Virus record (IMG/VR): IMGVR_UViG_3300037601_000035
DNA: 64,000 bases
DNA from: an uncultured virus (IMG/VR IMGVR_UViG_3300037601_000035)
Lineage: Duplodnaviria > Heunggongvirae > Uroviricota > Caudoviricetes
Direction: 5' to 3' (one strand)
How positions within the stretch are numbered: position 1 is the first letter of the stretch; every line of letters starts with the position of its first letter. The notes below the pieces were generated by a model. The model was not told the origin of the DNA, ran no database searches, and saw only the letters and a program-made list of their open reading frames with translations. Position numbers and translations under genes: made by a program. This document shows, piece by piece, positions 24,319 through 59,026 of this stretch.

Positions 24319-25866
24319 ATGAGTTTAAAATCAGCAAGAAAAAAGTATTTAGATACAGGGGAAGTTTCTGAAGAAGTTTTCAACGAATTAAAAAAGAATG
24401 ATCCTTCTAAAACGTTTAAATATATCGAAGCAATGTGTGACTACTATTTAACTAAATCTCCAGATCTCGGTTATCCACAAGCATTTAAACAGAATCATAG
24501 GATTAAATTTATAAGTAAAATTATCTACCATTGGGAAAGATTTAGAAAAAAAGGTTATATTAAAGAAGATATTAATCAATTAAATTTTAATGAATGTGTA
24601 GAGATAGTTTTAGAGACCGGATATGAATTTAATATTAAATTTATGGAAAAAAAGGACACTAGAAAATATCATGAAACTGTTATTGTAGATAACGATAAAT
24701 TCAAAATTGTAGTTCCGCATACAGATATGGGTTCTATAAAATACGGATCAGGAACTAGATGGTGTACTGCTGCAAAAAGATCCAATAGATTCAATGAATA
24801 TCAAAACGCAGGTCATTTTTTCTATTACGTTCACTTTAAAGATTTAGATACTCATCCTAATAATCCTGAATTAAATTCAAATTATTATAAAACTGCTATA
24901 GATATAGATATTGAAGAGGATGAAATTAGATTTTGGGATGTTAATGACAATAAAATTTTAACTTGTTACAGTATAGATTTAGAAGAACCTGCAAAAGAGG
25001 TTAGAAAGGATTTACAAGAATTTATTGAACGTCATTATTCTCTAGAATTCCAAAAAGTTTATGTTCCTATAATTAAATATTTAACTTTCAATAGACGTTT
25101 TTTAAGTAAAAAATATATTCAACAAAATAATTTGGCAACGCTTTTACCTAATAATGGAGGATATATTTTCAATGATGATGGAACATTAGATAAATTTTAT
25201 GGAGATTGTGATTTAAATTCATATATTGAAGAGAAAGGAGAAAATTGTATAAAAATAAAGAATTTTATAGGAGATGGTTTATATTTAAATAATTTGAAGA
25301 TAAATGATTTATCTAACTATATTGAAAACGTTGAATGTTATAAAATAGAAGCTAACAATTTAGATTTAAATAAATGGTCTAGTTTTCCAAAAGGAAGTAC
25401 TTATTATATTGATTTAACTAATAGCAAAATTAAAAATTTATATCATTTAAAAGATATTTCTTACTTTAAAATAAATTTGAATTGGAGTCAAATAAAATCT
25501 TTAAAGCTTATTAGTAAAAATGTTTTAAGTATACACGCAAATGGAGTACCTTTAGAAAAAATAGATTGTAAATTACCAAATAAAATGGATGAGATTGTAT
25601 TAGAAAATAATAATTTAAAATCTTTGAAAAATTTACCTGATAATGTAGGAGAAGTTTATTTACGAAATAATAATATTCAGGATTTAAAGTATTTGCCACT
25701 AAAATTTGATACTATATTTTTAGATGACAATGAAATTAAAGAAATTCCTGAAAATTTAATGTCTCATCAGTTTAATAGATTATATTTACACAGAAATAAA
25801 ATTAAAATTAATGATATTTTTATTGAAGATTTAGTGTTAAATAATAAAAGAGGATCTTGGCAATGA
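24319..25866 (+). CDS. WCT-domain + LRR protein (family B, leaderless)
   Basis: DPSKTFKY, IVVPHT..SIKYGSGTRWCTAA, C-terminal LRRs (NNLKSLKNLP). Confidence 0.85.
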   Translation: MSLKSARKKYLDTGEVSEEVFNELKKNDPSKTFKYIEAMCDYYLTKSPDLGYPQAFKQNHRIKFISKIIYHWERFRKKGYIKEDINQLNFNECVEIVLETGYEFNIKFMEKKDTRKYHETVIVDNDKFKIVVPHTDMGSIKYGSGTRWCTAAKRSNRFNEYQNAGHFFYYVHFKDLDTHPNNPELNSNYYKTAIDIDIEEDEIRFWDVNDNKILTCYSIDLEEPAKEVRKDLQEFIERHYSLEFQKVYVPIIKYLTFNRRFLSKKYIQQNNLATLLPNNGGYIFNDDGTLDKFYGDCDLNSYIEEKGENCIKIKNFIGDGLYLNNLKINDLSNYIENVECYKIEANNLDLNKWSSFPKGSTYYIDLTNSKIKNLYHLKDISYFKINLNWSQIKSLKLISKNVLSIHANGVPLEKIDCKLPNKMDEIVLENNNLKSLKNLPDNVGEVYLRNNNIQDLKYLPLKFDTIFLDDNEIKEIPENLMSHQFNRLYLHRNKIKINDIFIEDLVLNNKRGSWQ

Positions 25867-27515
25867 GTTTAAAATCTGCTAGAGAAAAATATTTAAAAAC
25901 AAAAAAAGTTTCTAAAGAAGTTTTCAATAAACTAAAAGAACTAGATCCTTCTAAAAGCTATAAGTATCTTGAAGCTATGTGTGATATGTATGAAAATTAT
26001 TATTTTTACATAAATGAAGATGACCACTACCCGGAAAAGTTTTTAACTCTATATAAAATAAAATGGGTAGAAAGATTAATTTATCATTGGGATAGGTTTA
26101 GAAAAAAGGGTTACATTAAAGAAGATATAAATCAACTTTCTGCTGATACAATTAGAACTATTTTAGTTCGAGTATTTGAAAAATATAATATTAAATTTAT
26201 AGAAAAAAATGACACTCGAAAATATAAAAAAACTATTCTAGAAAACAATGATGATATACAAGTAGTTATTCCTCACACAGATACTGCTTCTATAAAATAC
26301 GGGTACGGAACTCAATGGTGTACAGCAGGAACAGAAGATAACAGATTTAATCAATATCAAAATTCTAATTGTGTTTTATATTATTTCTATTTTAAATATT
26401 TAGATAGGCATCCAGACGATCCATCTTCAAATAGTAATTTGTATAAATTAGCAGCAGAAGTTAGTAGAGAAGAACAATATATTAAATTTTGGGATGTTGA
26501 AGATTCAAATGTTTATGTAATACATTGGGAAAATACAAAAAACACTGAAGAAAATCTAGAAGAAATTTATAAAAAAATAGCAATATGGAAATCTTTAGAT
26601 CCTCCACATAGAGCAGATTTTCATGATATAATTAAACTTGCAGTATCTTATATAGATTTTTCAGAAAAATATTTTGATGAAAAATATAAAGAACAAAATA
26701 GCAAATACGACAAAGAAATAATTGACGAAGTAGGAAGTTATAGAGTATTTAATGATGATGGAACATTAGATGTATTTGGATATAATAATTATATTCCAAC
26801 AGACTACCCTATTAAAATTAAAAATTGTTTTTGTAGAAGTTTATTTATAAGGGAAATTTATTTTGAAAATTTAAATATTGAAAATATAACTTCTGTATAT
26901 TTATACGGAGGTAATTTAAAAATAGATAATTGGAAATCTTTTTCTAACGGATTAATATATGATCTGGATTTACATGATTCTGATATTGACGATTTAAAAC
27001 ATATTTCAAATATTTCATATTGGAAATTAGACGTTTCAAATACTAAAATTAAAACACTTTTAAATTTAAATACTCAGCATTTGGAAATATTTAACGGAAG
27101 TTCTAATGAAATAAATGAAATAGAAGTAGTATTTCCAGAAAAAATGAAAGAAATTAATTTAAGTAAATGTAAAATAAAAAAGATTAAAGGGTTACCTAAA
27201 AAAATGAATTTACTAAATTTAGTAGATAATGAAATTGAAAAAATAGAAAATCTTCCTCAATGGACAAGAAGAATATTGTTAATGGAAAATAATATTAAGT
27301 CTTTACCCGAAAATCTTTCGAATAGTAATTTTGAATCGTTAAATCTTTCTTACAACAAAATAGTTATAAACGATATAGATGTTTCTGAACTTTCATTGTC
27401 CAACCCTAGAACTGCAGAAGAAACGTTAATTTTACCAAATAGTAAAAAAATTATAGTAAATTCGGGTATTACACTTAGTGAAAGTACTTGCGACAGAGCC
27501 GGGGTACCATTTTAA
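25863..27515 (+). CDS. WCT-domain + LRR protein (family B, leaderless)
   Basis: Start set at ATG 25863 (MSLKSA, ATGA overlap); KYGYGTQWCTAG; LRRs; ends GVPF. Confidence 0.85.
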   Translation: MSLKSAREKYLKTKKVSKEVFNKLKELDPSKSYKYLEAMCDMYENYYFYINEDDHYPEKFLTLYKIKWVERLIYHWDRFRKKGYIKEDINQLSADTIRTILVRVFEKYNIKFIEKNDTRKYKKTILENNDDIQVVIPHTDTASIKYGYGTQWCTAGTEDNRFNQYQNSNCVLYYFYFKYLDRHPDDPSSNSNLYKLAAEVSREEQYIKFWDVEDSNVYVIHWENTKNTEENLEEIYKKIAIWKSLDPPHRADFHDIIKLAVSYIDFSEKYFDEKYKEQNSKYDKEIIDEVGSYRVFNDDGTLDVFGYNNYIPTDYPIKIKNCFCRSLFIREIYFENLNIENITSVYLYGGNLKIDNWKSFSNGLIYDLDLHDSDIDDLKHISNISYWKLDVSNTKIKTLLNLNTQHLEIFNGSSNEINEIEVVFPEKMKEINLSKCKIKKIKGLPKKMNLLNLVDNEIEKIENLPQWTRRILLMENNIKSLPENLSNSNFESLNLSYNKIVINDIDVSELSLSNPRTAEETLILPNSKKIIVNSGITLSESTCDRAGVPF

Positions 27516-27528
27516 ATAGGAGAATAAA

Positions 27529-29202
27529 ATGAGTTTAAAAACTGCTAAAGAAAAATATTTACTTAAGAAAAAAATAAACAAAAAACTTTTTAATAAACTT
27601 AAAGAAGCGGATCCTTCTAAAAGCTACAAGTATCTTGAAGCTATGTGTAAATTTTATTTACAAAACGATTTTACAGAACACGACATTCCTAAACTTGCAA
27701 GATACATTTATCATTGGAATAGATTTAGAAAAAAGAAATACATTAAAGAAGATATTAATCAGTTAAATTTTAATGAATTTAACCGTATCTTAACTGAAGT
27801 AGGAATGAAATATAATGATAAAATTTTAAAAACTTTAGATTCGCATACTTCTGAAACTGTAATAGTAGACAATGAAAAATTAAAAATTGTAGTTCCTCAT
27901 ACAAAATATGCATCTATTAAACATGGCGCAGGAACCAAGTGGTGTACGTCTGCAAAGAACAGTAACAGATTTCGTGAATATAGAAATTCTTCTAGTGTTT
28001 TGTATTATGTCCACTTTAAAGATTTAGACGATTTTCCAGATAAACCTATGCATAATGATTCTCAATATAAAACTGCATATTTAGTAGATTATGAAGAAAA
28101 TTTAGTTGAACTTTGGGACGCAGACGATTCTCTACTATATTCTTTTCGTTTTGAAAACGAAGAAAAAGCAAAGGAAACATTAAAAGAATTTAATGCGAAT
28201 CATGTAGAAGCTTTGAGATTAATTGATTATAAAAATGAAGAGTTTATAAAAGATAAATACTTTACTCTAAGTCCTAAAATTTCTTTTATTGAAAAACTAC
28301 AAAGTTATTATACTCAATTAGTATATGTATTTAATGATGACAAAACAATTGACATTTTTGAAAGAGCAGAAGAAATGTCAGATATTATAAGTTCTATTTA
28401 TATGTCTTCTTTTCCTATAAAAATAAAATATCTTTTTGGAAGTCGCTCAAATTTAATTGTTCATGATAAAGAATTTTATGATAATTTACCAGAGTTCGTT
28501 TATTTAAAAACAGAATTAAGATTTGTGAACTATATGCCCTCTAACACTCACAATTTTTCTGTGAAGTTGCCTAAAGGAAGAGTAAGAGAGTTTTGTATTA
28601 TACACGGAAATATTTCACATATAGATTATACTGATTTAGAAATTACTTCAAAAATATTTCTAAAACATACCGAAATTAAATCATTAAAAAATATCCCGTT
28701 AAATATCAAAGCTTTGACAGTAAATTACAATAACTTGAAACAAATAGATTTACCTAGAGGAAATAAAATATGTTACTTAAATTTAGAAGATAATAATATA
28801 ACTAAAATAGAAAATCTAAATGATAAAATGGATAATCTTATTTTAGCAAATAATAAAATAACTAAAGTTGAAAATTTGCCTTCATATTGTGTTAATATAG
28901 ATTTAAAAAGAAATCCAATAAAAGAAATTTCTGATTTATCTAAGAATGGTTTTGAAGATTTAGAAATAGAATCTTCAGCCAATTTTAAAATGAACGGAGC
29001 ATTTATTAGAAGTGTTCGTTTATCTAATCCTCGTCAAAAAGAAACGGAAAAAATAAATGAAGAAATAGAAGAATCGATAGAAGAAGATTTATCTTTATCA
29101 GGAGGGTATACTACTATATGGGGTAAAAAACCTGTCTATGCAGTACAAAATGAAGATTATGAAATAGAAATAATTGAAGTAGATGAAAATATACCATTTT
29201 AA
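27529..29202 (+). CDS. WCT-domain + LRR protein (family B, leaderless)
   Basis: KHGAGTKWCTSA; LRRs; acidic tail ending DENIPF. Confidence 0.85.
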   Translation: MSLKTAKEKYLLKKKINKKLFNKLKEADPSKSYKYLEAMCKFYLQNDFTEHDIPKLARYIYHWNRFRKKKYIKEDINQLNFNEFNRILTEVGMKYNDKILKTLDSHTSETVIVDNEKLKIVVPHTKYASIKHGAGTKWCTSAKNSNRFREYRNSSSVLYYVHFKDLDDFPDKPMHNDSQYKTAYLVDYEENLVELWDADDSLLYSFRFENEEKAKETLKEFNANHVEALRLIDYKNEEFIKDKYFTLSPKISFIEKLQSYYTQLVYVFNDDKTIDIFERAEEMSDIISSIYMSSFPIKIKYLFGSRSNLIVHDKEFYDNLPEFVYLKTELRFVNYMPSNTHNFSVKLPKGRVREFCIIHGNISHIDYTDLEITSKIFLKHTEIKSLKNIPLNIKALTVNYNNLKQIDLPRGNKICYLNLEDNNITKIENLNDKMDNLILANNKITKVENLPSYCVNIDLKRNPIKEISDLSKNGFEDLEIESSANFKMNGAFIRSVRLSNPRQKETEKINEEIEESIEEDLSLSGGYTTIWGKKPVYAVQNEDYEIEIIEVDENIPF

Positions 29203-29215
29203 ATAGGAGAATGAA

Positions 29216-30754
29216 ATGAGTTTAAAATTAGCTAGAAAAAAATATGTAGAAACCGGAAAGATTAATAAAGAAGAATTTAATAAGTTAAAAGAAGCGGTTC
29301 CTTTTAAAGCATATAAATATATGATATTTATTTGTGAACTTTATTTACACCAATATTCTCATTTTTATATAAAATTTATTACTAAATCTATGTATAATTT
29401 AGATAAAAGAAATAAGTATAACATGTATAATCCATACCAAGAATTTTCTATCCATAAAATGTGTACTGATGTTGAAGCAATTACAAATAGATTTATACGA
29501 AATAGTGAAGACGTAAAATCACACGAATTGATTCTTAGAGATGATGAAGAATGGAAAATAGTAGTTCCGTTAAATAAAACATCTTCGATAAAATACGGCT
29601 ATGGAGCTAAATGGTGTACTGCAGCAACTGAAAGTAAAAATTATTTCTACTATCATGTATATCCTAATGGAACTTTATACTATTTTCAAAATAAAAAATT
29701 ATCACCGAATGCTAAAAGATATAAAATGGCAGTTCATTCTAATAGTAACGGAATAACTATTTGGGATGCGCCTAATGATCAGATATATTCTGAATATACA
29801 AAAAACAAATTAAGCAAATTATTACCACAAGAATATCAAAATTTTCCAATTCTTAATAAAGAGTTCGAAGAAATATCGTCATTTAGTGGGGTCGACATTC
29901 TTATTGATGTAGATGAAATAAAAATAACTAAAAATATAGACAGCACTTATGATTTACATAACTTTTATATTAGAAATCAAAGAGATGATTTTTTTAAAAA
30001 TTTAAAAATTAAAAATATTCATGGCGAATGTCATTTTTTTAGTAAAACGTTGAAAGATTTAAATATACTTTCTTCTGTAGAATTTATTAATGAAATTGAA
30101 ATCCATTCAAATAATTTAGAAACTTTAGAAGGACTTCCTTCTAATAATAGATTGATTATTAGAGGAGGGGTTGGATATGAAAGAGTAAATGAAAATCCTT
30201 TTTCTTTTAAAGGAATTCCTAAAAAATTAAAAAACTTGAAGATTGAAAGTTTAGATAAAATAGACTACATAGATTATATGCCTGATATTATTACTGGTGA
30301 ATTATTTTTAGAAAGAAACTCAGCTAATTACACATTAAATTTTAAACAATTTCCTTCTAAAATTAATACTTTCCGTATCGGTTTTGGACATAATAAAATT
30401 AAAATTAACCCAAAAATTGAAATTGATTTAGAAAATTTAATTATTCATAGCTGTTTAAGAATAGACAATGATAAAAATTTATTAGATAATATCAATATTC
30501 AAACGTTAAAACATATTCAAATTAAAGACATTCCAACGATGACAATACTTGAATTTTTATCAACTCTCCCGTCTAGTTGTGTTGTTGAAATAAATTTCAC
30601 TATTAATGAGACGGGTAGCATTGGAGAAATAGTATATCTAAAAAGAAAACTAGATGAATTAAAAGCACAAGTACATTTTAATATTTTGGGTTTTGATATG
30701 GACCAATTAGAAAATATGGTAGAAGAAAGAACTGAACTTCTGGAATCTTTGTAA
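29216..30754 (+). CDS. WCT-domain + degenerate LRR protein (family B, leaderless)
   Basis: MSLKLARKKY, KYGYGAKWCTAA, NNLETLEGLP. Confidence 0.8.
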   Translation: MSLKLARKKYVETGKINKEEFNKLKEAVPFKAYKYMIFICELYLHQYSHFYIKFITKSMYNLDKRNKYNMYNPYQEFSIHKMCTDVEAITNRFIRNSEDVKSHELILRDDEEWKIVVPLNKTSSIKYGYGAKWCTAATESKNYFYYHVYPNGTLYYFQNKKLSPNAKRYKMAVHSNSNGITIWDAPNDQIYSEYTKNKLSKLLPQEYQNFPILNKEFEEISSFSGVDILIDVDEIKITKNIDSTYDLHNFYIRNQRDDFFKNLKIKNIHGECHFFSKTLKDLNILSSVEFINEIEIHSNNLETLEGLPSNNRLIIRGGVGYERVNENPFSFKGIPKKLKNLKIESLDKIDYIDYMPDIITGELFLERNSANYTLNFKQFPSKINTFRIGFGHNKIKINPKIEIDLENLIIHSCLRIDNDKNLLDNINIQTLKHIQIKDIPTMTILEFLSTLPSSCVVEINFTINETGSIGEIVYLKRKLDELKAQVHFNILGFDMDQLENMVEERTELLESL

Positions 30755-30758
30755 TAGA

Positions 30759-30786
30759 AAACTTTTCACTTATTTTTAAGTATAAT
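30759..30786 (+). promoter_or_regulatory. AAACTWTW-N14-TATAAT promoter
   Basis: AAACTTTT 30759-30766, TATAAT 30781-30786. Confidence 0.7.
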
Positions 30787-30790
30787 AAAT

Positions 30791-31462
30791 ATGAAAAATT
30801 TAAAAGAAACATTTAAACAAATAATTCACTTCAATGAAAGTGATGAACACTTAAACTTATTTTTAGACGAATTAGTATTTCAATATTCTCAACCTTGGAG
30901 AAAATATCACAATGTAGATCATGTTTTTTCTTTATTAGATTCTATTACAACAGAAATAGAAAACGATTTATCTGAAAAAGAAATGCTTTTACTTAAAACT
31001 GGTATTTTATTTCATGATGTCATTTATGTTCCAGGATCTTCGGTAAATGAAGAAGCTTCTGCAGATTTTGCAAATACTTTTTTATTAAGAGCTGGATGGT
31101 CATTTGAAGATGTGTTAACAATTAAAGGATTGATAAAATCGACTAGTTTCAATCCTACATTAAATCACCCAAAACATTATTATGTAAAGCCATATTTACT
31201 TGCAGAAATAATTCAAGATTTAGATCTTTTAGGATTTTCTTATGATGAAGAAGAATTCATTTTAAATCAAGAAAAAGTATTTAATGAACTTCAAATATTG
31301 AAACATGAAAAATCAACTCCAAATACTTTCTATGAAACTATAGTAGAAGCAATGGAAAAGGGCGGAAGATTATATAAAACAAAATACTTTGAGCATTTAA
31401 ATATTAAAGCTTTAGAAAATTTACAACAATTAGTTAAAAAGAATAATGGAAATAATATTTAG
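30791..31462 (+). CDS. HD-superfamily metal-dependent phosphohydrolase
   Basis: RKYHNVDH, FHDVIY, NEEASA, DLD. Confidence 0.8.
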   Translation: MKNLKETFKQIIHFNESDEHLNLFLDELVFQYSQPWRKYHNVDHVFSLLDSITTEIENDLSEKEMLLLKTGILFHDVIYVPGSSVNEEASADFANTFLLRAGWSFEDVLTIKGLIKSTSFNPTLNHPKHYYVKPYLLAEIIQDLDLLGFSYDEEEFILNQEKVFNELQILKHEKSTPNTFYETIVEAMEKGGRLYKTKYFEHLNIKALENLQQLVKKNNGNNI

Positions 31463-31559
31463 AAGTTTTTGGACCTTTGCTGGTACAGTTATTCTATTAA
31501 TGATTGTATTGGATTTTATATTAGATGTGATTAAAGAATTTAAAAAGGATAAAAAATGA
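31446..31559 (+). CDS. 37-aa single-TM membrane peptide (not in ORF track)
   Basis: MEIIFRSFWTFAGTVILLMIVLDFILDVIKEFKKDKK; fills the gap and overlaps the next start (ATGA). Confidence 0.6.
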   Translation: MEIIFRSFWTFAGTVILLMIVLDFILDVIKEFKKDKK

Positions 31560-32146
31560 AAGTTAAAGAAGTTTTTGATAATATTACATTTCCAATAACT
31601 CTTTATGATAAAAATAAAAATGTAATTTATCATGAAGAAGAAAATGGACAATTTATAATAATGATTTATGATAGTTCAAATAGATTAATATATCAAGAAA
31701 TGTCAAGTGGTTATTTTAAAGAATGTGAATATGATAATGAAGGAAACTTAATATATTTTAAAAATCCTAACGGAATTAAATTTGACAATAGACCGGATTT
31801 TAAAAAGAAATTTAAAATAAAAACATATTCAATAAAAAATAATTCTAATGAAGGTCTTACTGCAAGAGATCCAAATTTACAAAATGGGGAACATAGAGAA
31901 GTACAATTAGAAGATCTTTTTATAGAAATTCCAGATCCTATTTTATTTTATGATAAACAAGAAAATAAAATTTATTATCAAGACAAGAAAGGTTTTTATT
32001 GGAAATCAGAATATGACGAAAATTCAAATCAAGTTTATTATAATGATAAATACAATAGATGGTGGAAAAAAGAATATGATTCACAATCTAGAGTGATTAA
32101 AGAAGTAACTCCTACTGGAGAACAATATTATGAATACGATAATTAA
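31556..32146 (+). CDS. YD-like repeat protein
   Basis: Repeated (E)YDxxxNxIY units in two duplicated halves. Confidence 0.65.
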   Translation: MKVKEVFDNITFPITLYDKNKNVIYHEEENGQFIIMIYDSSNRLIYQEMSSGYFKECEYDNEGNLIYFKNPNGIKFDNRPDFKKKFKIKTYSIKNNSNEGLTARDPNLQNGEHREVQLEDLFIEIPDPILFYDKQENKIYYQDKKGFYWKSEYDENSNQVYYNDKYNRWWKKEYDSQSRVIKEVTPTGEQYYEYDN

Positions 32147-32156
32147 GTAAAAGAAA

Positions 32157-33332: not shown

Positions 33333-33701
33333 ATGAAAAAAGAATCTTCTATAATAGCAACTATACCTTATGAAGAAGTTTGTTTTAAATGGGTAAGTCA
33401 CCATTGGGATATTAATTTGAATGGAATATGTATCTATGAAAACGAATTATGTGAATTTGAAACATTTTTTGTTTATGATAAAGATGAAGAGGACGAAGAA
33501 CTTCAAGGAGATTATGATGCCTTTGTTCGTATTTACAAATTAAACTTTTTACAAAAACTTAAGTGGCTTTGGAGAAAAAGAAAATTTGAACTTTGCGTCG
33601 GTTACTATTGGTCATACAAAGATGGTGAACGATTAAATAAAAAATTCAAACATAAGAAAAAATCGCTTTCTAGTAGATTTTATAAATGGTATTATTATTA
33701 A
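33333..33701 (+). CDS. Hypothetical protein
   Basis: 122-aa ORF abutting the previous stop. Confidence 0.6.
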   Translation: MKKESSIIATIPYEEVCFKWVSHHWDINLNGICIYENELCEFETFFVYDKDEEDEELQGDYDAFVRIYKLNFLQKLKWLWRKRKFELCVGYYWSYKDGERLNKKFKHKKKSLSSRFYKWYYY

Positions 33702-33716
33702 AATATAGGAATAAAA

Positions 33717-34013
33717 ATGGGTGTAGATTATTCAGCGTATTATGGAATAGGAATTCAAGTAGATAAAGAAGATGAAATATCTATAGATTCTTTTTTAGAA
33801 GATGAAGTAGAAAATGAAGAATATTCATTTTTTGAAACTGGGTCTGCTTCTTATGGTGGAGATGCCGAATATTATGTTATTATTAAAGATCCATTTAAAA
33901 ACGGTTTAAATAATTTAGAAAAACAAAAAGAAACACTTCTATATTATTTAGATAGTAAAGGATTGACTACAATTGGAGAATTTGGTGTTGTAGGTGGTTT
34001 ACTTATAGATTAA
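33717..34013 (+). CDS. Hypothetical protein
   Basis: 98-aa ORF with AGGA RBS. Confidence 0.6.
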   Translation: MGVDYSAYYGIGIQVDKEDEISIDSFLEDEVENEEYSFFETGSASYGGDAEYYVIIKDPFKNGLNNLEKQKETLLYYLDSKGLTTIGEFGVVGGLLID

Positions 34014-44834: not shown

Positions 44835-44875
44835 TTCATTTTCAGTTGATTTCCTTAATAATATATATTTTCAGT

Positions 44876-49822: not shown

Positions 49823-49828
49823 AAAAAT

Positions 49829-52731: not shown

Positions 52732-52735
52732 AAAC

Positions 52736-52754: not shown

Positions 52755-52760
52755 AGTTAT

Positions 52761-53099
52761 ATGAAAATTTTAGATCCTATAGTAATAACGTATTTAAAGG
52801 AAGATGTATTTCCTGTAATGAAATATCCTTTAGAACAAGTTTCTGATATACTTTTGGAAGACACTTTAGATTATGATGATCAAACAATAGTAATAAAGAA
52901 ATTTGTAGATAATTTAGAAGTGTATACACATTCCGATTTAGGAACTTCGGACGCCAATGTATTAGTAGATTTTTCTTCAAACATATTCGTAAATTATTTT
53001 GTTGCTAATGTAAATACTACTCCTGAATATCTTTTATGTTTTACTTTTAATGGAGATAAAATTGATTTAACAGTACCATTAGAAAATTATACACCATAA
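52761..53099 (+). CDS. Hypothetical protein
   Basis: 112-aa ORF. Confidence 0.6.
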   Translation: MKILDPIVITYLKEDVFPVMKYPLEQVSDILLEDTLDYDDQTIVIKKFVDNLEVYTHSDLGTSDANVLVDFSSNIFVNYFVANVNTTPEYLLCFTFNGDKIDLTVPLENYTP

Positions 53100-53767
53100 T
53101 GAATAAAGAATTTAAGACATATAAAGAATTTATAAATGAAAAAGTATCAACATCAATCCCATGGGATGCTATTGAATTAATTAAAAAAGACGTTGCTAGA
53201 TCTAAAGATTTTATTCAATCTAAAGTAACTTCTTTAGAGGAGCTTGCTGAATATTTAACAATGGTAACTAAAAAATATGACGTAGTATTTCATACTTACA
53301 AAGATTTTCCAGAATTAGAAGGAAGTCCAGCATTTCATAATTCTAAAGATGAACAAGTACATATTTTACTACAGCCAGATGTTCTTTCTATAAAAGAAAA
53401 TGATACTAAATGGGATAATTGGATGTCTAGATTAGAAGATTCTTTAGTTCATGAAATGACACATCAACAAGATTCTTTAAATCCTAAAAGACCTTTTATG
53501 GAAGGCTCTGATTTAGAAGATGATATTAAATATTTTTCTACTTTTGAAGAAATAAGAGCTTATGCAAATGAACAAATGAATAAGTTCCAAAATCAATTGA
53601 AGTGGAATAAAGAAAAAATAGAAAGAACTTTACAAGAAGTAGAACCTGTAGATCATGTTAAAGGTCAAATATGGAATGTTTATTTAAAATTATTTAAAGG
53701 AACAGATACTTTTGAATGGTTTTTAAAATGTTGTTATGAATACTTAGACAGGTACGTAAAACAATAG
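53099..53767 (+). CDS. HExxH zincin-like metallopeptidase with capsid-targeting-like leader
   Basis: MNKEFKTYKEFINE; LVHEMTHQQD and downstream EEIRAY. Confidence 0.7.
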   Translation: MNKEFKTYKEFINEKVSTSIPWDAIELIKKDVARSKDFIQSKVTSLEELAEYLTMVTKKYDVVFHTYKDFPELEGSPAFHNSKDEQVHILLQPDVLSIKENDTKWDNWMSRLEDSLVHEMTHQQDSLNPKRPFMEGSDLEDDIKYFSTFEEIRAYANEQMNKFQNQLKWNKEKIERTLQEVEPVDHVKGQIWNVYLKLFKGTDTFEWFLKCCYEYLDRYVKQ

Positions 53768-53806
53768 AAATATATACTATACTAAAAGAAATAAAAACAA
53801 ATAAGA

Positions 53807-55039
53807 ATGCAACATCTTAATGAAGGTAAAAAACAAGCAGAACAAAGATTTGTAGAAACTGGAAGAATCAACAGTTCTACTTTTACACAGCTTTTATCTG
53901 CAGATCCAACAAATAATAAAAAATATATTGAGAAAATGTGTGACTTCTTTCTTCAAATGAAAGATCATGAAAATTATTCTCAAATCATGGAACTGGAAAG
54001 AATAATGGCTCTTAGTCATTTAATAGAAGAGTTTCACGAAAAAACAAATAGAAATATAATAAGTGGAAACGATAAAGACATTCAAAGATATTCTGAAATA
54101 GATGACTTTGAAAAAGTTATTATAGATGCTAGAGGAAAGATTTCTAATACACAAAAGAAGAAAAAAGAAATTTCTGAAAATAGTGTAATGGTTTATGATG
54201 ACGATGCTTGGAGATGTCATTTAGTATTTAATTGGACAGGAGCAAAAAAGATAGGATCAGGAACTAAATGGTGTATTACGTTTTTAACTCCAGTACACTG
54301 GAACGATTATTTTTGGAGACAAGGACAACATTTTTATGTTATAACAAACAAAGCTTTTGATAGTCAACCCGTTTCGAGTGAAGATAAAAATCCTTTATAT
54401 AAGGTTGCTGCCCAAGTAAATTATAGTGGACAGCTTTCTAATTTTTGGGACGCACCTGATTCTTCATTTAATCCTATTTTAGATACTGGAATGAATGAAG
54501 AAAGAAGAATTTGGTGGAATGCTTTACCAGATAAAATTAAAAAGCTTTTAGAAAAACCTGAACCAGAAGGAGAAAGCAGAAAAATTTTAGTTCACAATCA
54601 TAATCCTAAAATAGGACATAATGTTGAAAAAAACGTTGAACAGATTCATTTTAAAGATTTTTATGTAAATTCTGATATTCCTTATATCGATTTTTCTAGA
54701 ATGAAGAATATAGATTTTAAAATAACAGGAGCAATTGTTATTTCTGATACAGATCTAGAATCTTTAGAAAGCGTAGATTTTTCAGAATTTAAAGGTGTTG
54801 AAAGTTTTAAAATAGAAGGAAATAAAAAATTAACAAGTTTAAAAGGTTTACCGAAAAACATTTCAGGTACCTTGACAATAGAAAACAATCCTTCTTTGGG
54901 TAAAGATGCAATTGATGATTTAAAAGGAGTTACTTTAAGGAAAAAGTTAACTTGGAAAAATAACAAGGAGAAAACTTCTATGTATGATTTTTTACAGAGA
55001 AGATGGGCTCCAGTATTAGGGAGTATTAATGCCAAATAA
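53807..55039 (+). CDS. WCT-domain + LRR protein (family B, short leader)
   Basis: MQHLNE; DPTNNKKY; GSGTKWCIT; NKKLTSLKGLP; AATATATA at 53769-53776. Confidence 0.82.
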   Translation: MQHLNEGKKQAEQRFVETGRINSSTFTQLLSADPTNNKKYIEKMCDFFLQMKDHENYSQIMELERIMALSHLIEEFHEKTNRNIISGNDKDIQRYSEIDDFEKVIIDARGKISNTQKKKKEISENSVMVYDDDAWRCHLVFNWTGAKKIGSGTKWCITFLTPVHWNDYFWRQGQHFYVITNKAFDSQPVSSEDKNPLYKVAAQVNYSGQLSNFWDAPDSSFNPILDTGMNEERRIWWNALPDKIKKLLEKPEPEGESRKILVHNHNPKIGHNVEKNVEQIHFKDFYVNSDIPYIDFSRMKNIDFKITGAIVISDTDLESLESVDFSEFKGVESFKIEGNKKLTSLKGLPKNISGTLTIENNPSLGKDAIDDLKGVTLRKKLTWKNNKEKTSMYDFLQRRWAPVLGSINAK

Positions 55040-55472
55040 TATTGAATATACTAAAATGGGATTTCTTTTGTATACTATGACAAAGGAAGGGCAGTTAGGA
55101 GTTTATTATTCTGAAAATGTTTTAAATAATAGACCTTTTATAGTAGAGCCTCAAGATGAAACTCACGACGTTTTAGCAGAAATTTTAGACGAATTAGAAC
55201 TAGAAGTAGATTCTAAAAGAATAAGTTTTTTAGGAAGCTTTAATAACGATGGTTCTTTTGGAGCAGAAGAAGTTACTAGAGAAATAGATGCAATTGCAAT
55301 TGATGTATCTTCTTTAAATATGAGAGAATTTATCAGTAAGTGGTCTTTAAAAGAAAATTTTGCTTATGTATTAAATAGAGAAGAAAATTCATTATTGCTT
55401 GCAATGATGATGAAATTGATACTAACTAAAAAGAAGTTAGCAAATGTAAAAAACAAAAATAAAGAAAATTGA
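55029..55472 (+). CDS. Hypothetical protein (possible degenerate Nudix fold)
   Basis: AEILDELELEV...FLGSF loosely resembles a Nudix box. Confidence 0.45.
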   Translation: MPNNIEYTKMGFLLYTMTKEGQLGVYYSENVLNNRPFIVEPQDETHDVLAEILDELELEVDSKRISFLGSFNNDGSFGAEEVTREIDAIAIDVSSLNMREFISKWSLKENFAYVLNREENSLLLAMMMKLILTKKKLANVKNKNKEN

Positions 55473-56374
55473 TAACTAAACAGATAAAAAATTATACAGA
55501 GTTTATAAACGAAAGCAAAGGTTTCGATCAATCTAGGTTTCCTTTAGAAGATCCTGGAGAAGTTAAAAAATGGATCCAAGAAAACCTAGAAGGGAAAAAG
55601 ACTCCAACTAGGAAGCATCGTTTATCTGGTGCTTGGACAATAGGTGAAGAAGGGTATGTCTCTTGTACAGGGGATATAAATTTAAGTGAAATGAAGTTAA
55701 CTAAGTTACCTTTTAGAATTAAGTCTGTAGGTGGCGATTTCGATTGTTCTAATAACAAATTAACTAGTTTAGAAGGTTTAGAAAGTCTTAAGTCTGTACG
55801 TGATTATTTTTTATGTTCTAAAAACCAGTTAACTACTTTAGAAGGTCTTAAGAATCTTGAGTTTGTAGGTGGCTCTTTCAGGTGTGATAATAACAAATTA
55901 ACCGGTTTAAAAGGGCTTGAGAATCTTAAGTCTGTAGGAGAGGATTTATGGTTGCATTATAATAAGTTAACTAGTTTAGAAGGTTTTCAAAGTCTTAAGT
56001 TTGTAGATGGTACTTTTGCGTGCCATGGTAACAAGTTAACCAGTTTGAAAGGTCTTGAAAATCTTAAGTCTGTAGGTGGCGATTTCCGGTGTCATCGTAA
56101 CAATATACTTTCTAAAAAATTTACTTTTGAAGTTAAAGGAAATATAGAAGTTGAACCTCAAGAAAAATACGAAGATTCAATAAAATATCTAGTATCTTTA
56201 CCAGAAGAAGAACAAAAGAAGATTATAGAAGATTTAATGGATTGGGATCTACCCTCATGTAGAAAACTTCTTTCTTATTCAGAAGAAAATAATATTAAAT
56301 TATCTATAAATCAAGAAGTTTATAAATGGAATAAAGAAGCTAAAGATTTAGAAGATACAGGATTAGAATTTTAA
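55469..56374 (+). CDS. LRR protein family A (5 LRR units)
   Basis: TTG start; IKNYTEFINES...DQSRFPLEDP...DLEDTGLEF. Confidence 0.88.
   Translation: MITKQIKNYTEFINESKGFDQSRFPLEDPGEVKKWIQENLEGKKTPTRKHRLSGAWTIGEEGYVSCTGDINLSEMKLTKLPFRIKSVGGDFDCSNNKLTSLEGLESLKSVRDYFLCSKNQLTTLEGLKNLEFVGGSFRCDNNKLTGLKGLENLKSVGEDLWLHYNKLTSLEGFQSLKFVDGTFACHGNKLTSLKGLENLKSVGGDFRCHRNNILSKKFTFEVKGNIEVEPQEKYEDSIKYLVSLPEEEQKKIIEDLMDWDLPSCRKLLSYSEENNIKLSINQEVYKWNKEAKDLEDTGLEF
55754..56098 (+). repeat. Five tandem 69-nt LRR-coding units
   Basis: Recurrent aa(c/t)aagttaac..cttaagtctgtagg with a 23-codon period. Confidence 0.85.
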
Positions 56375-56384
56375 ATAGATACAA

Positions 56385-57542
56385 ATGATAAATAAGTACG
56401 ATAATTATAGAAATAGATTTATAAATAGAAGTGTAGATGGAGTTCAAGATCCATTATATTTAACATTTGGTTTGCGTTTTGAATTTTTTCCTAGAATTTC
56501 TCCTGACGAATCTTTAGAACCTGGATTACTTTCAGGAGGTGCTAGAGATTTTCTATCTTCAAGAGGAGACGATTTAAGAGTTCAAAAATTAGATTATTTT
56601 GTTAATTTATTAAGAAAATTTTCTATTGAAGAACCTTGGTGGTTTACTCAACTTTCAGGAGTAAATGATCTTTTAACTTTAAATAACGAAGGTCCAAGAC
56701 TTCCTGAAGGAACTTCTTTTACGGTATCTTCTAGAGAATCTGTCGATATGAAATTTTTATCTTTAATGGAAGCTTATAGATCAACAGTTCAAGATAAAAA
56801 ATATATGAGAGACGTTTTAGTTAAAAATTTAAGATTTTTTGATATGTCTATTTATCTTATAGATCCTAGAATACTACTTAAGAGAAATGGAAATAAATTA
56901 GAATATGATGATGATTCTCAAGGAGTAATTGTTTTAAAGCTTAGAGATTGTGAATTTGTTTTTGATGATTATTCGGGACTTGCATCTTCTATTACTAATG
57001 AAGGAACCGAAGATGATATAAAACATACATTTGAAATTATTCCTAGAAGAATTTTAGAAGTTTATAATTTGCCTACTAAAGAATTATTTGGATATGGAGG
57101 AACAGGCTACTTTAGTGATGATAATAGACAAGACTTTAATTTCTTAACTAATTTCGTTAGACCTAAAACTGGTTTATATGCAGAACAAGGAAACGAAAGA
57201 AGACCTAAGGAAGAAGATTATCAAGATTTTAAAGATTCAAATAAAATAAAAATTTCAAATATTGAAGAAGAATCTGCTGAAGAAGCAAAACTTAAAAGAG
57301 AAATTAGACTTCCTGATAATATAAATGCAGAAAGTTCAGAAAGAGAACAATTAGATTTAGGAGAATTAAATGTTTCGAGTGCTAGAAGAGAACAACTGGA
57401 TTTAGGAAATTTAGAAGTAAATCCAGATAGGAGAATTCCAGAAGCTCCTAAAAATATAAATCCAGAATCAAATAAAAGAGATGAGTTAGAATTAGGTTTA
57501 TTAGAAGTAATTTCAAACAGACCACCAAGAATAATAGAATAA
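56385..57542 (+). CDS. Putative tail tube/baseplate-associated structural protein with C-terminal REQLDLG repeats
   Basis: QDPLYLTFGLRF, PWWFTQLSG, ESVDMK, LRFFDMSIY; three R(E/D)xLxLGxLxV repeats. Confidence 0.5.
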   Translation: MINKYDNYRNRFINRSVDGVQDPLYLTFGLRFEFFPRISPDESLEPGLLSGGARDFLSSRGDDLRVQKLDYFVNLLRKFSIEEPWWFTQLSGVNDLLTLNNEGPRLPEGTSFTVSSRESVDMKFLSLMEAYRSTVQDKKYMRDVLVKNLRFFDMSIYLIDPRILLKRNGNKLEYDDDSQGVIVLKLRDCEFVFDDYSGLASSITNEGTEDDIKHTFEIIPRRILEVYNLPTKELFGYGGTGYFSDDNRQDFNFLTNFVRPKTGLYAEQGNERRPKEEDYQDFKDSNKIKISNIEEESAEEAKLKREIRLPDNINAESSEREQLDLGELNVSSARREQLDLGNLEVNPDRRIPEAPKNINPESNKRDELELGLLEVISNRPPRIIE

Positions 57543-59026
57543 TGAATAAAGAATTTTTAAATTATAGAGACTTTTTAAGTTTAAATGAATCTAAAGCAAG
57601 TGCTAAAAGAAGATTTTTAAATACAAATAAAATAGATAAGGAAACGTTTGACGAGTTTGTAAAGATGGATCCAAGTCCTAATTTTAAATATGTAGAAAAA
57701 TTAATTGAATTTCATTTAAAAGATAAAGTAGAACCATTTGAACTTTCTTCTGCTATAGAGACTTATCATGAATTAGAAAATAGAAATCTAATAAATGCAG
57801 ATATTCAAAGACTTTCTTATGAAGAATTTGATTCGCTTATTACACAAGCACTTAAAAGAAAAAAGGAAATAGATAAAGAAAAGAAAGAAACTTCTGAGGT
57901 AGAAGTAATATTAGATAATGATGATTTTTTAATTATTGTTCCGCAAACGATAGAATCTAGTTGTAAATACGGATCAGGAACTAGATGGTGTACTGCTGCT
58001 AAAAAAGATAATTATTTTAAAAGTTATGTTTATAATCAAGGAGTAACTCTTTATTACATTATAGATAAAAATAGATCACACAGTAAAACTTATTCCAAAA
58101 TTGCAGTAGCTGTTTATGAAGATGAAAGAAGACTTGTTTATAATGCAAATGATACAGAAATAGGAATGCATTATGTTATGAACGAGTTAGGACTTGATGA
58201 AAATATTTTTATGCCTAGAGAATTAACTTCTCCTCAAGCTCAATTACATCGTACACTTACAAAATATGGAATTAATGAAGATAAGTTAACTGATAATGGA
58301 GATGGAACTTATGATTATGATGGAAGCATAAACTTATTTAGAAGAAATTTAAATAGTTTATTAGATATAGGAATTAGATTCAGAAAAATTACAGAAAATT
58401 TCAATTGCTCTAATAATAAATTAGAAAATTTAGAAGGATCTCCAGAAATAGTAGAAGGAATTTTTGATTGTTCTTATAACAATTTGCCTAGTTTGGTAGA
58501 TGGACCAAAACAGGTAGGTCGCGAATACGACTGTTCTTATAATCCATTAAAGACTTTAGAAGGAATTCCAGTAAAAGTAGGAGATTTAGATTGTCAAAAT
58601 ACTGAAATTATAAATTTACTTCATTGCCCACAGGAAGTAGGAGATTTGTATCTTTCAAATAATAAGTACTTAACTTCTTTAAAAGGTGGACCAGAAATTG
58701 TAGATGGAGATTTAACTGTAGGATTTACTAAAATAGAAAAGTTCGAAGATATTAAAAAAGTAAATGGGTCTTTATTTGCTCAAAGAACAAAACTTAAAAC
58801 TTTAAAAGAAATTCCTCTAGTAAAAGGAAATATAATATTATTTGGAAATCAACTTACTTCTATTGAAGGATTACAAAAAGAAATAACGGGTATGTTAGAT
58901 ATAAGTTATAATGAAATAGAAAAATTAGACTTTTTACCTAAAGCTCGTAGAATTAATGTAGAAGAAAATCCAGGTGATTTAGAAGAACAAATAAAAGAAT
59001 TGCGTAAATCTAGTGTCAATATATAA
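57542..59026 (+). CDS. WCT-domain + LRR protein (family B, with capsid-targeting-like leader)
   Basis: MNKEFLNYRDFLSLNES; SCKYGSGTRWCTAA; FxCSxNxLxxLxGxPxxV LRRs. Confidence 0.88.
   Translation: MNKEFLNYRDFLSLNESKASAKRRFLNTNKIDKETFDEFVKMDPSPNFKYVEKLIEFHLKDKVEPFELSSAIETYHELENRNLINADIQRLSYEEFDSLITQALKRKKEIDKEKKETSEVEVILDNDDFLIIVPQTIESSCKYGSGTRWCTAAKKDNYFKSYVYNQGVTLYYIIDKNRSHSKTYSKIAVAVYEDERRLVYNANDTEIGMHYVMNELGLDENIFMPRELTSPQAQLHRTLTKYGINEDKLTDNGDGTYDYDGSINLFRRNLNSLLDIGIRFRKITENFNCSNNKLENLEGSPEIVEGIFDCSYNNLPSLVDGPKQVGREYDCSYNPLKTLEGIPVKVGDLDCQNTEIINLLHCPQEVGDLYLSNNKYLTSLKGGPEIVDGDLTVGFTKIEKFEDIKKVNGSLFAQRTKLKTLKEIPLVKGNIILFGNQLTSIEGLQKEITGMLDISYNEIEKLDFLPKARRINVEENPGDLEEQIKELRKSSVNI

Follow-up and report, generated by a model that had tools for sequence, protein, structure and literature searches.

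The closest described counterparts of the locus analysed here come from bacteriophage T4, in which unrelated cargo proteins carry a short N-terminal propeptide, the capsid targeting sequence (CTS), given as MKTYQEFIAE (PMC8442874). In a second account, residues 4 and 7 of this peptide are assigned to targeting and residues 8 and 10 to processing, with the protease gp21 cleaving after L/I-x-E (PMC9026906). T4 also offers a precedent for delivery at two stages, as Alt is described as an injected head protein and ModA and ModB as proteins produced early (PMC2988021). A different parallel is provided by the type III effectors IpaH, SspH and YopM, which combine a variable set of leucine-rich repeats (LRRs) with a constant module in an injected protein.

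The phage considered here is an uncultured, giant T4-like virus, a T4-related myovirus with a genome of 211.6 kb and 27% G+C. Our analysis centres on a 64,000-nt stretch of its DNA, referred to as the window, whereas proteome counts are based on the 280 ORFs of the whole genome. These ORFs include a Peptidase_S77 protein, the gp21-type prohead protease (56.3 bits against a Pfam cut-off of 27), and a match to the Gp23 capsid protein (100 bits). A scaffold is encoded as well, in a protease-scaffold ORF in which the motif YSEY[LIV]AE is repeated and [LIV]xE sites are numerous. We propose, with a probability of roughly 0.6, that the WC-LRR proteins of this phage constitute a family of cargo or effector proteins that exists in two forms, a packaged, leader-bearing one and a non-packaged, leaderless one.

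The WC domain and its variable repeats

All seven paralogs listed in the first-pass annotation were recovered (Table 1), and a profile built from them retrieved exactly eight members from the 280 genome ORFs, with E-values of 1e-67 to 5e-89. The reported motif GxG(T/A)xWC(T/I) is present in each of the seven, reading GSGTRWCT, GYGTQWCT, GAGTKWCT and GYGAKWCT in the tandem copies A to D and GQGTRWCT, GSGTKWCI and GSGTRWCT in the dispersed copies E to G; the eighth copy, H, carries GxG(T/A)xWC as well. Two further motifs ascribed to most copies, DP(S/T)xxxKY and DI(N/Q)xL, each occur in six of the seven, the exception being D, which has AVPFKAYKY in place of the former and lacks the latter.

Table 1. 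Positions and strands of the WC-LRR genes and associated features
Feature	Position	Strand	Description
Copy A	24319..25866	+	Leaderless WC domain and LRR, 515 aa; AGGAG ribosome binding site
Copy B	25863..27515	+	Leaderless WC-LRR, 550 aa from ATG
Copy C	27529..29202	+	Leaderless WC-LRR, 557 aa
Copy D	29216..30754	+	Leaderless, 512 aa, most diverged; GYGAKWC; DP and DI motifs absent; one LRR unit by pattern
Copy E	43212..44834	-	Canonical leader MNKIVKGYTEFLNE (codons 44793-44834), WC domain, about 7 LRR units
Copy F	53807..55039	+	Leader shortened to MQHLNE, WCI in the WC domain, short LRR-like tail
Copy G	57542..59026	+	Leader MNKEFLNYRDFLSLNE, WC domain, CSxNxL-type repeats
Copy H	genome 37323-38696 (outside window)	-	Leader MKTFLPFKDFLFE; from profile search
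Second leader-bearing LRR family, member	55469..56374	+	MITKQIKNYTEFINE / SKGFDQSRFPLEDP...
Paralogs of ORF 55469..56374	939-1781; 36228-37022; 61406-62245	+; -; -	
Unrelated ORF with same leader	53099..53767	+	MNKEFKTYKEFINE
Late-type promoter motif	44855..44869	-	AATATATATTATTAA, 35 nt before E start
Late-type promoter motif	53769..53783	+	AATATATACTATACT, 38 nt before F start
Terminator-like hairpin	24209..24240	+	13-bp stem, then T run; closes late unit of ORF 22390-24180 just before array
Second-class (probably prereplicative) promoter element	24236..24286	+	TTTTTTTATTTAAAAAATTTTTCTTATATTACAACACATTCAATTAACA; 28-nt core, 0 mismatches
Rest of array unit	30791..34013	+	Phosphohydrolase, uncharacterised ORF, exonuclease, two small ORFs

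Both glycines, the Trp and the Cys of the WC motif are invariant across a 12-member alignment of the seven copies and five outside homologs. In two family alignments of 65 and 36 members, the Gly of the Gly-rich loop, the Trp and the Cys are invariant or more than 90% conserved, and a Tyr, a Lys and an Asp reach at least 90% in one or both. Copies A to D retain all of these residues (G, G, W, C, K, Y and D) and have Ile where the SC..WC pair common in the family has its first Cys. In the predicted structure, the conserved Cys is placed where a short helical turn begins after the Gly-rich loop. At just short of an even chance, we tentatively regard the WC domain as an enzyme or ligand-binding site formed around the invariant Gly-x-Gly-Thr-x-Trp-Cys loop and the conserved Tyr, Lys and Asp.

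Fold comparisons of the domain, which according to the first-pass annotation may be a Cys-dependent enzyme aimed by the LRRs, brought no match to a solved structure and a distant likeness to models named PcfJ. Foldseek returned 0 PDB matches at E<=1e-3, a sequence profile search of the PDB found nothing, and the best VIA Z value was 5.4, with no enzyme fold recognised. A papain-like or Cys-His hydrolase fold was absent from the Foldseek and VIA matches, an absence that is not decisive, and the alignments of 12, 33, 36 and 65 members contain no His column at 90% that could provide a partner for the Cys. Alt, ModA and ModB are ADP-ribosyltransferases with an ART fold and R-S-E type motifs; neither the Pfam search of the copies nor the fold searches returned a member of the ART family. 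Among the best 50 rows of a BFVD Foldseek search, 15 were PcfJ-named (E 4.4e-4 to 8e-2), at low TM-scores of 0.26-0.36, and in the protein atlas the closest cluster that has a name is likewise PcfJ (0.90-0.91). The Pfam PcfJ model (PF14284) matched nothing in the whole genome at E<=10 and, at E<=1, none of 33 aligned members (the seven window copies and 26 outside homologs), and it scored above its cut-off in two more distant family members, inside their WC domain copies. The WC domain may be distantly PcfJ-like, with a predicted fold resembling that of proteins including pCF10 PcfJ and many phage proteins, for which the literature searched gives no function.

The WC domain could instead be a non-enzymatic structural or adaptor module, for instance holding the protein in the DNA-filled head or docking onto a conserved host or phage component, while the repeats alone act as a stoichiometric binder or inhibitor, comparable to T4 IPI* and its restriction enzyme target. 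We hold this to be quite possible, at somewhat less than even odds. Apart from the lack of an enzyme fold in the PDB, VIA and profile searches and of a conserved His or acidic partner standing out beside the Cys, it agrees with the fusion partners of the domain in the wider family, which are nearly always binding repeats (LRR, ankyrin, LRV, HEAT, WG and DUF4116) and rarely enzymes, and with the model, in which half of the domain is predicted to be a helical bundle. The T4 internal proteins, too, are described as working through binding (PMC3012670). However, the conserved Gly-rich loop and the Tyr, Lys and Asp are more suggestive of a catalytic or ligand site than of a packing surface, and up to five WC domain copies occur per polypeptide in the wider family, which also speaks against this reading.

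The repeats proved to be variable, as previously described, although they are clear only in A, B, C and E, each of which contains 4-7 LxxLxLxxNxL units; D has one unit, F has none by pattern, and G has repeats of another type. The background density of such units is 0.16 per 100 aa in the rest of the proteome, and the Pfam LRR scores of the seven copies all lie below the cut-offs. A model of A shows a predicted LRR solenoid (pLDDT 90.5) with strands about every 20 residues. The fold matches of its C-terminal part are LRR proteins, the best of them including IpaH3 (E 6.8e-4, rmsd 3.6 over 186 columns), YopM and, through their LRR domains, IpaH1.4, IpaH2.5 and SspH1. The likeness to these type III effectors, with their short LRRs of 20-22 residues, is one of fold only and, for the proposed injected protein, of a constant module joined to variable repeats; unlike them, the WC-LRR proteins have no NEL ligase domain, carry their LRRs C-terminally and would use a phage capsid as vehicle and a bacterium as target. 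Differences among the LRR parts, together with a full-length identity of only 24-26%, also make it too strong to speak of the same effector in the leaderless and leader-bearing sets.

Transcription and origin of the leaderless array

As initially reported, the tandem copies A to D begin with MSLKxA(R/K)xKY and follow strong ribosome binding sites, which read AGGAG in A, C and D and GAGGA in B; AGGAG or GGAGG precedes only 29 of the 241 genome ORFs of at least 80 aa. For B, the most likely start codon is the ATG at 25863 and not the TTG at 25857, given that the spacing from the GAGGA box is 8 nt for the former and only 2 nt for the latter.

The "distinct upstream motif" attributed to these genes resolves into two things, a 50-nt element before A and a duplicated junction, CCATTTTAAATAGGAGAAT, before C and D. 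The element recurs in the genome in 12 copies with at most 4 mismatches, all of them 19-49 nt upstream of a start on the same strand, and 9 of the 10 occurrences of its core, CTTATATTACA, lie 20-90 nt before a start. Judged by sequence and placement, it is a second class of putative promoter. Separate expression of the leaderless array is supported, since a terminator and then this different, highly conserved promoter element precede it. The unit runs on into DNA-metabolism genes, and no terminator-like site was detected downstream of the array up to 31700, the end of the scanned stretch. By analogy, and because of the genes that follow the element, the second class would be early or prereplicative, as originally suggested for the tandem copies. 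The array may instead be transcribed by read-through from the upstream late gene, or the second-class promoter may be used late.

In the outside set examined for leaders, comprising 113 representatives with an N-terminal WC domain, only four are leaderless, three of them identical to B, C and D and the fourth, P0018, 90% identical to A. In the tree, A to D and P0018 form one clade (support 0.97), whose sister is the leader-bearing P0104 (0.92) and which is nested among leader-bearing members. The leaderless array is therefore derived within the family.

We consider it unlikely that the array, rather than being a distinct early set, is a drifting recent expansion or a group of late-expressed genes whose products reach the head by another route, such as pairing with leader-bearing paralogs. 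Such a scenario would fit the position of A to D, which directly follow a same-strand gene with a late promoter, and the state of D, with its missing DP and DI motifs and few LRR units. However, the four reading frames are all intact (512-557 aa), with the invariant residues and strong ribosome binding sites kept; they are set apart from the late gene by a terminator hairpin of 13 bp; a perfect core copy of a promoter element present about 12-fold in the genome precedes A; and a full-length ortholog of A, 90% identical, exists elsewhere. Moreover, B to D share only 29-42% identity with A, so that the duplications must be old and the genes maintained.

Leader peptides and the probable route to the capsid

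The three dispersed copies of the window, E, F and G, have a leader ending in LNE, as the first-pass annotation stated, although that of F retains the cut site and lacks the aromatic part. The register noted between the two sets also holds, in that the residue following LNE (S, S and G) aligns with Ser2 of MSLK. In E, whose leader ends in GYTEFLNE, the Y, F, L and E occupy the T4 CTS spacing, and only in this copy do all positions match; the leader of G has a two-residue insertion, and that of H has F replacing Y.

The leader, whose core Y-x-E-F-[LI]-x-E matches that of T4, is common to about 20 unrelated ORFs of the phage, and two leader flavours are present among the leader-bearing ORFs. Of the 280 ORFs, 27 have the tripeptide [LIM]NE among their first 22 residues, compared with 7.5 expected. 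The proteome contains 15 instances of the motif Y-x-[ED]-[FY]-[LIV]-x-E (mean 1.2 and maximum 5 in 200 shuffles), namely eight in N-terminal leaders, where it begins at residue 8, 9 or 14, six in the scaffold repeats of the protease-scaffold ORF and one elsewhere. This likeness between leader and scaffold repeat was seen in a comparison that covers this phage only.

The RATATATA motif reported upstream of two leader-bearing copies is present before E and F, and the one before F heads a gap-free, same-strand run of ORFs that extends to G, whose start overlaps the stop of the ORF at 56385-57542. The octamer AATATATA precedes capsid, protease and large structural genes in addition to E and F, and 31 of its 37 occurrences lie 20-90 nt before a same-strand start, as against 11% in 40 permuted controls; genome-wide it is not over-represented (37 occurrences, whereas the permuted controls average 106). 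The case for AATATATA as a putative promoter is one of position relative to starts and of an extended consensus.

An N-terminal extension is the rule in the wider family, which comprises 12,512 cluster representatives at E<=1e-3. An extension of at least 6 aa that ends in [LIVMF]xE at the domain boundary is found in 63 of the 113 outside representatives, and the internal domain copies of polyproteins are also mostly preceded by a site of this type. One relative, EST35_0205 of the Pseudomonas jumbo phage PA5oct, which is about 33% identical to the query P0006, an outside member of the family, resembles the window copies in having a WC domain (FGKGTRWCTA) behind an N-terminal extension (MKLFEVFTLYE) and differs from them in its C-terminal part, which is not LRR; its record is annotated "structural protein, ESI-MS/MS".

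By comparison of sequences, the identification of the leader as a T4-type capsid targeting sequence appears well supported. Of the earlier proposal of one effector delivered both from the capsid and by early expression, the capsid route of the leader-bearing copies has fared well, because their leader matches the T4 CTS at mapped positions and is common to unrelated ORFs, because it ends in the L/I-x-E site of the encoded gp21-type protease, and because the late promoter motif is shared with capsid genes and the PA5oct homolog is annotated in virions; the notions "same" and "early" are weaker. That the shared peptide is some other signal, for export, membrane targeting or translational or regulatory control, is very improbable, given that it is hydrophilic, aromatic and unlike a signal peptide, matches both the T4 CTS as described from experimental mapping and the repeat in the scaffold of this phage, terminates in the type of site that belongs to the encoded S77 protease and is found on genes behind a late promoter.

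A two-form model

Starting from the family and its register, the common leader, the encoded protease, the presence of two classes of promoter and the placement of A to D as a derived clade, we infer packaging, cleavage, timing, ejection and function as follows. The first form, comprising E, G, H and perhaps F, would carry a propeptide of 13-16 residues that acts like the T4 CTS. This propeptide resembles one scaffold repeat unit (Y-x-E-[FY]-[LIV]-x-E) and is therefore proposed to join the scaffolding core. Produced late, together with the head genes, these proteins would be cut by the gp21-type protease after [LI]-x-E, acquire a mature S-K-A-x-A-K-R-R-F start inside the capsid and be ejected with the DNA into the next host. 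The second form, the tandem array, may have arisen when a leader-bearing ancestor lost its propeptide in a single event, and its genes would therefore start at the residue that proteolysis would expose. After this loss, the array would have gained a strong Shine-Dalgarno box, come under a different promoter and then undergone tandem duplication, its products being made in the infected cell, most likely before replication, and not packaged. In both forms, the WC domain would serve as the constant working part and the LRRs as the variable part that selects the host partner.

As in T4, a protease of the gp21 family and a capsid protein of the gp23 family are encoded, the candidate cargo genes are diverse and multi-copy, and the propeptide has the Y-x-x-F-[LI]-x-E core on unrelated proteins, ending in L/I-x-E. 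Unlike the T4 CTS, given as 10 residues long, the leader comprises 13-16 residues and has Asn at P2, and there are about 20 candidate cargo proteins, compared with three or four in T4. The candidate cargo is large (264-540 aa) and multidomain, unlike the small basic cargo of T4. With Alt, ModA and ModB, as far as these are described, the WC-LRR proteins would share the existence of packaged, processed and non-packaged, prereplicative forms of one family with diverged specificity, the timing being suggested here by promoter class. This likeness is limited to the mode of delivery, as the Pfam and fold searches brought up no relation of the WC domain to ADP-ribosyltransferases; unlike the Alt/Mod genes, moreover, the genes of the non-packaged form begin precisely at the predicted processing site and form a four-gene tandem array with variable LRRs. 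By analogy, the overall pattern may thus represent a variant of the T4 internal-protein and Alt/Mod pattern.

The phage and its WC-LRR paralogs

Corresponding to bases 143201-207200 (reverse strand) within a single 211,581-bp virus record with a G+C content of 27%, the window encodes products that PHROGs assign as tail sheath, baseplate hub, gp32-like SSB, UvsX, DnaB-type helicase, SbcD, a split DNA polymerase and endolysins. Elsewhere, the genome encodes a Peptidase_S77 (T4 gp21-type) prohead protease (56 bits versus a cut-off of 27) as well as a major capsid protein of the Gp23 type (100 bits). Judged by this combined gene content, the phage is a large T4-related myovirus. A megablast search with 20 kb of the window returned no close relative from the GenBank phage collection. 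Likewise, a scan of viral contigs for related loci yielded only a second, 100% identical assembly of the same phage, and a two-pattern scan of metagenome contigs gave no relative. UvsX lies in pieces, with its N-terminus in a 96-aa ORF, followed by an unrelated 471-aa ORF and a 522-aa ORF encoding the remainder, a break that may reflect the insertion of an intron, intein or homing gene. The match of the 407-aa DNA polymerase ORF to family B polymerase profiles is confined to their C-terminal part, suggesting that the gene is split.

All seven ORFs that the first-pass annotation had grouped as paralogs with a common N-terminal (WC) domain are present, and each contains the shared motif GxG(T/A)xWC(T/I) ascribed to them. 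A profile built from the paralogs detects exactly eight members among the 280 ORFs of the genome, including one outside the window (copy H). The proposed register between the leader-bearing copies and the leaderless tandem copies A-D also holds, with the residue after LNE occupying the Ser2 column of the MSLK starts in every alignment. Since the initiator Met is usually removed when Ser is in second place, we infer that both forms would begin at the same residue once this processing has occurred. For copy B, the start is most likely the ATG at 25863. The idea that all seven copies carry leucine-rich repeats (LRRs) stands in part: by the repeat pattern used, copies A, B, C and E have clear LRRs; they are sparse in D (one unit) and F (none), and G has another repeat type. 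The full-length model of copy A (pLDDT 90.5) displays a solenoid, and its best solved-structure matches are LRR proteins, including IpaH3, YopM and the IpaH and SspH LRR domains. Pfam searches with the eight paralogs assigned no family to the N-terminal domain and gave weak LRR matches; low matches to Rv2949c-like, Acid_phosphat_B and Recep_L were taken as noise. PHROGs placed the paralogs in unknown-function families only (17056, 28193 and 21719).

Other repeat proteins are encoded nearby. Three tandem ORFs among the replication genes lack both a leader and the WC domain and contain repeats of the same kind as copy G (DLS.Q.LTEIP..G.F..S.N.L); they may represent a second, LRR-only intracellular set. 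A second four-member family consists of a canonical leader, followed by SKEFDQSRFPLEDPEEVK... and LRRs, with one member exceeding the Pfam LRR_4 cut-off; no leaderless member of this family was found.

Positions of the paralogs and associated features (window coordinates unless marked as genome)
Feature	Position	Strand	Remarks
Copies A-D	24319-30754	+	leaderless, tandem
Copy E	43212	-	leader-bearing
Copy F	53807	+	leader-bearing
Copy G	57542	+	leader-bearing
Copy H (eighth paralog)	genome 37323-38696	-	profile match; leader MKTFLPFKDFLFE
Protease-scaffold gene (L001)	genome 58895-60862		outside window
DNA polymerase ORF	10121-11344	+	407 aa
UvsX pieces	11365-14683	+	two ORFs, with an unrelated ORF between them
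LRR-only ORFs	16905-17840, 17866-18900, 18932-20428	+	tandem
596-aa ORF	22390-24180	+	behind late-type promoter
Terminator-like hairpin	24209-24240		13 bp, with T run; after the 596-aa ORF
Lysozyme/endolysin-like ORF	49829-50761	+	phrog_181
Second four-member family	939-1781, 55469-56374	+
Second four-member family	36228-37022, 61406-62245	-
Back-to-back late-type motifs	genome 39547/39555, 76879/76887		outside window
Possible third upstream motif class	genome 36051, 51608, 65430		AAGTATAATTAATAT
Possible third upstream motif class	about 8545-8600		AAGTATAATTAATAT; before ORF 7555-8544

The leader as a candidate capsid address

The leader (such as MNKEFKTYKEFLNE) is a candidate capsid address that extends well beyond the WC-LRR family. 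Among the 280 ORFs scanned, at least eight with no other relationship to one another begin with MNKEFKTYKEF[LI]NE or a close variant, and a second flavour, MKKENRIVESF..F..NE, starts several further ones; overall, [LIM]NE is found inside the first 22 residues of 27 ORFs, compared with 7.5 expected. A lysozyme/endolysin-like ORF starts with MIIKYTDYKLNE and may encode a packaged wall-degrading enzyme. The capsid targeting sequence (CTS) of T4 is MKTYQEFIAE (PMC8442874), in which targeting depends on residues 4 and 7 and processing on residues 8 and 10, with gp21 cleaving after L/I-x-E (PMC9026906). In the leader of copy E (GYTEFLNE), the Y, F, L and E residues are spaced exactly as in the T4 CTS. 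The putative capsid-targeting leader system of the phage would work like that of the T4 internal proteins with their CTS.

The prohead protease and a scaffold part are encoded by one fused gene, in which about a dozen 14-residue repeats (...YSEY[LIV]AENVNK...), each with an [LIV]-A-E site, make up a scaffold region at residues about 280-480. The motif of these repeats is that of the cargo leaders and the T4 CTS. In the form Y-x-[ED]-[FY]-[LIV]-x-E, it occurs 15 times in the proteome, namely six times in the scaffold, eight times in N-terminal leaders (beginning at residue 8, 9 or 14) and once elsewhere, whereas 200 shuffled proteomes averaged 1.2 occurrences and never exceeded 5. At the sequence level, the leader looks like one scaffold-repeat unit followed by a cut site. 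This likeness suggests how it would join the scaffolding core, which it may enter by mimicking a scaffold repeat.

A link between the WC domain and virions is provided by the cultured Pseudomonas phage PA5oct. The WC-domain model has 26 matches at E<=1e-3 among predicted viral structures, including a 'structural protein' of this phage, and a tblastn search with P0006, an outside family member, identified the gene EST35_0205 in PA5oct and ten related phage records. Its product starts with MKLFEVFTLYE, contains FGKGTRWCTA and is annotated in the PA5oct record as 'structural protein, ESI-MS/MS'; 93 gene products have been linked to PA5oct virions by this method (PMC7318152). Taken with the leader sequences, these data make packaging of the leader-bearing copies likely.

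Expression and origin of the leaderless array

A late-type motif, AATATATA (usually longer, AATATATAG.TTATA), occurs 37 times and is placed 20-90 nt before a same-strand start in 31 of these cases, compared with 11% for 40 permuted control words. It is located upstream of the capsid and protease-scaffold genes and of the largest structural genes, but also of copies E and F and a 596-aa ORF; copy G lies within a gap-free run of same-strand ORFs after F. No family match was obtained for the 596-aa ORF, which has a long hydrophobic stretch rich in Gly and Ala and is the only ORF between the two terminator-like hairpins that flank it. In two shared intergenic regions, late-type motifs are arranged back to back in opposite directions. 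A possible third class of upstream motif precedes a few genes, including the SSB gene.

Between the hairpin that follows the 596-aa ORF and copy A, a 50-nt element, TTTTTTTATTTAAAAAATTTTTCTTATATTACA..A.ATTCAATTAACA, is present in perfect form. This element is present in 12 copies in the genome (28-nt core, up to 4 mismatches), always 19-49 nt before a start, and most copies precede small ORFs at 70-123 kb of the genome. The array has strong ribosome binding sites (AGGAG in A, C and D, GAGGA in B); the strong form, AGGAG or GGAGG, is present in 29 of the 241 ORFs of at least 80 aa. No terminator-like site was detected between copy A and 31700, and the same-strand ORFs past the array encode a phosphohydrolase and an exonuclease. 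Based on the hairpin, the 50-nt element, the ribosome binding sites and the terminator-free run into these two genes, array A-D and the genes that follow it can be read as a putative prereplicative unit. The interpretation offered at the outset is supported in part: of its two modes of delivery, packaging of the leader-bearing copies is likely, and a separate, probably early, expression of A-D is plausible. A look for RNA sequencing runs covering 22300-31500 gave none, and a sigma-70 consensus scan was uninformative (59 sites versus 67.7 expected). An early-promoter motif of the giant phage phiKZ contains TATATTAC, which is also found in the 50-nt element before copy A; a literature text search for the phiKZ motif returned unrelated papers only. 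The idea of a virion RNA polymerase was dropped after Pfam found neither a beta nor a beta-prime RNA polymerase domain in the genome record, which, being about 82% complete, may still miss them.

The wider family became accessible only by a full profile search, which identified 12,512 proteins at E<=1e-3 among 1.84 billion cluster representatives, 8,515 of them at E<=1e-10; a word-based homolog search found 7. The best matches consist of the WC domain alone (215-260 aa) or combined with LRRs of several types, ankyrin, LRV, HEAT, WG or DUF4116, and rarely with a GNAT, poly(A) polymerase or M23 domain; a single polypeptide may contain up to five WC domains. We surveyed leaders in the N-terminal 320 residues of 161 proteins (153 stored ones and the eight copies of the phage), setting aside 40 and retaining the 121 with the domain near the N-terminus. 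Among the 113 outside proteins, 63 have an extension of at least 6 residues that ends in [LIVMF]-x-E at the domain boundary, 43 another extension of at least 6 residues, and three are short or misaligned. The remaining four are leaderless, three being identical to B, C and D and the fourth, P0018, 90% identical to A. Internal WC domains in polyproteins are mostly preceded by an [LIVMF]-x-E site as well.

In a midpoint-rooted FastTree phylogeny (200 profile columns, 114 rows), from which we had dropped six stored proteins that duplicate or almost duplicate window copies and one further row exceeding 60 gaps, A-D and P0018 form one clade (support 0.97), whose sister is the leader-bearing protein P0104 (support 0.92). 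Because this clade falls within a leader-bearing group, together with E and G, leaderlessness is, on this tree, derived and arose once, with tandem duplication following afterwards. The array copies share 29-42% identity with A, so the duplications are old.

The WC domain and a possible two-wave effector system

The suggested structure prediction and fold search of the WC domain produced a confident model but no match to a solved structure. The AlphaFold model of the copy E domain (pLDDT 92) comprises a helical half and an alpha/beta half, and in the copy A model, the invariant Cys lies directly after the Gly-rich loop, where a short helical turn begins. Foldseek against the PDB gave no match at E<=1e-3, and a sequence profile search of the PDB returned nothing; VIA-align reached a best Z of 5.4, and its weak GNAT-like and TdeM rows at Z 4-5 were regarded as chance. 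The nearest named family is PcfJ, accounting for 15 of the 50 BFVD matches listed and for atlas values of 0.90-0.91; PBECR4 (0.88) and MecA (0.87), also found in the atlas, are leads only. The Pfam PcfJ model exceeds its cut-off inside the WC domains of two distant members, with no match in the window copies or the other aligned members, and the domain is therefore a distant PcfJ-like relative rather than a member of this family. The literature searched reported no function for PcfJ. The conserved polar residues of the WC domain are Tyr, Thr, Cys, Tyr, Lys and Asp, with no conserved His in the alignments, a pattern with which catalysis is possible.

It is tempting to speculate that these proteins represent a two-wave modular effector system of large T4-related phages, akin to type III LRR effectors, a reading to which we give a chance of roughly one in four. 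Its constant part would be a catalytic, PcfJ-like WC module built around the cysteine, which exchangeable LRR, ankyrin or HEAT binders would aim at host proteins, perhaps those involved in defence. In the first wave, pre-made protein would leave the capsid, having been packaged by means of an address peptide that imitates one scaffold repeat. In the second, leaderless copies would be synthesised early, from a gene start that evolved to match the N-terminus made by the protease. If true, this match would imply that a free N-terminus at the exact residue matters for activity. 

The proposed pairing of packaged and unpackaged paralogs resembles that of T4, in which Alt is an injected head protein and ModA and ModB are early products (PMC2988021). 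New here are the cargo family as such and how many candidate cargo proteins there are, along with the coincidence of the leaderless gene start with the exact predicted cut site, a tandem expansion driven from a promoter class of its own and the likeness of the leader to a scaffold repeat.

Injected proteins take effect before the first phage gene is expressed, and as a source of functions in anti-defence and host takeover they are still largely unexplored. This locus offers a family of candidate cargo proteins that is uncharacterised and very large, with 12,512 cluster representatives and no solved structure. The occurrence of one family with and without a capsid address represents a natural experiment, in which localisation and timing are separable from function. 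Moreover, scaffold-repeat mimicry provides a concrete, testable idea for how a capsid address works, and the agreement between leaderless starts and predicted cut sites may enable prohead protease sites to be called from sequence alone in uncultured phages.
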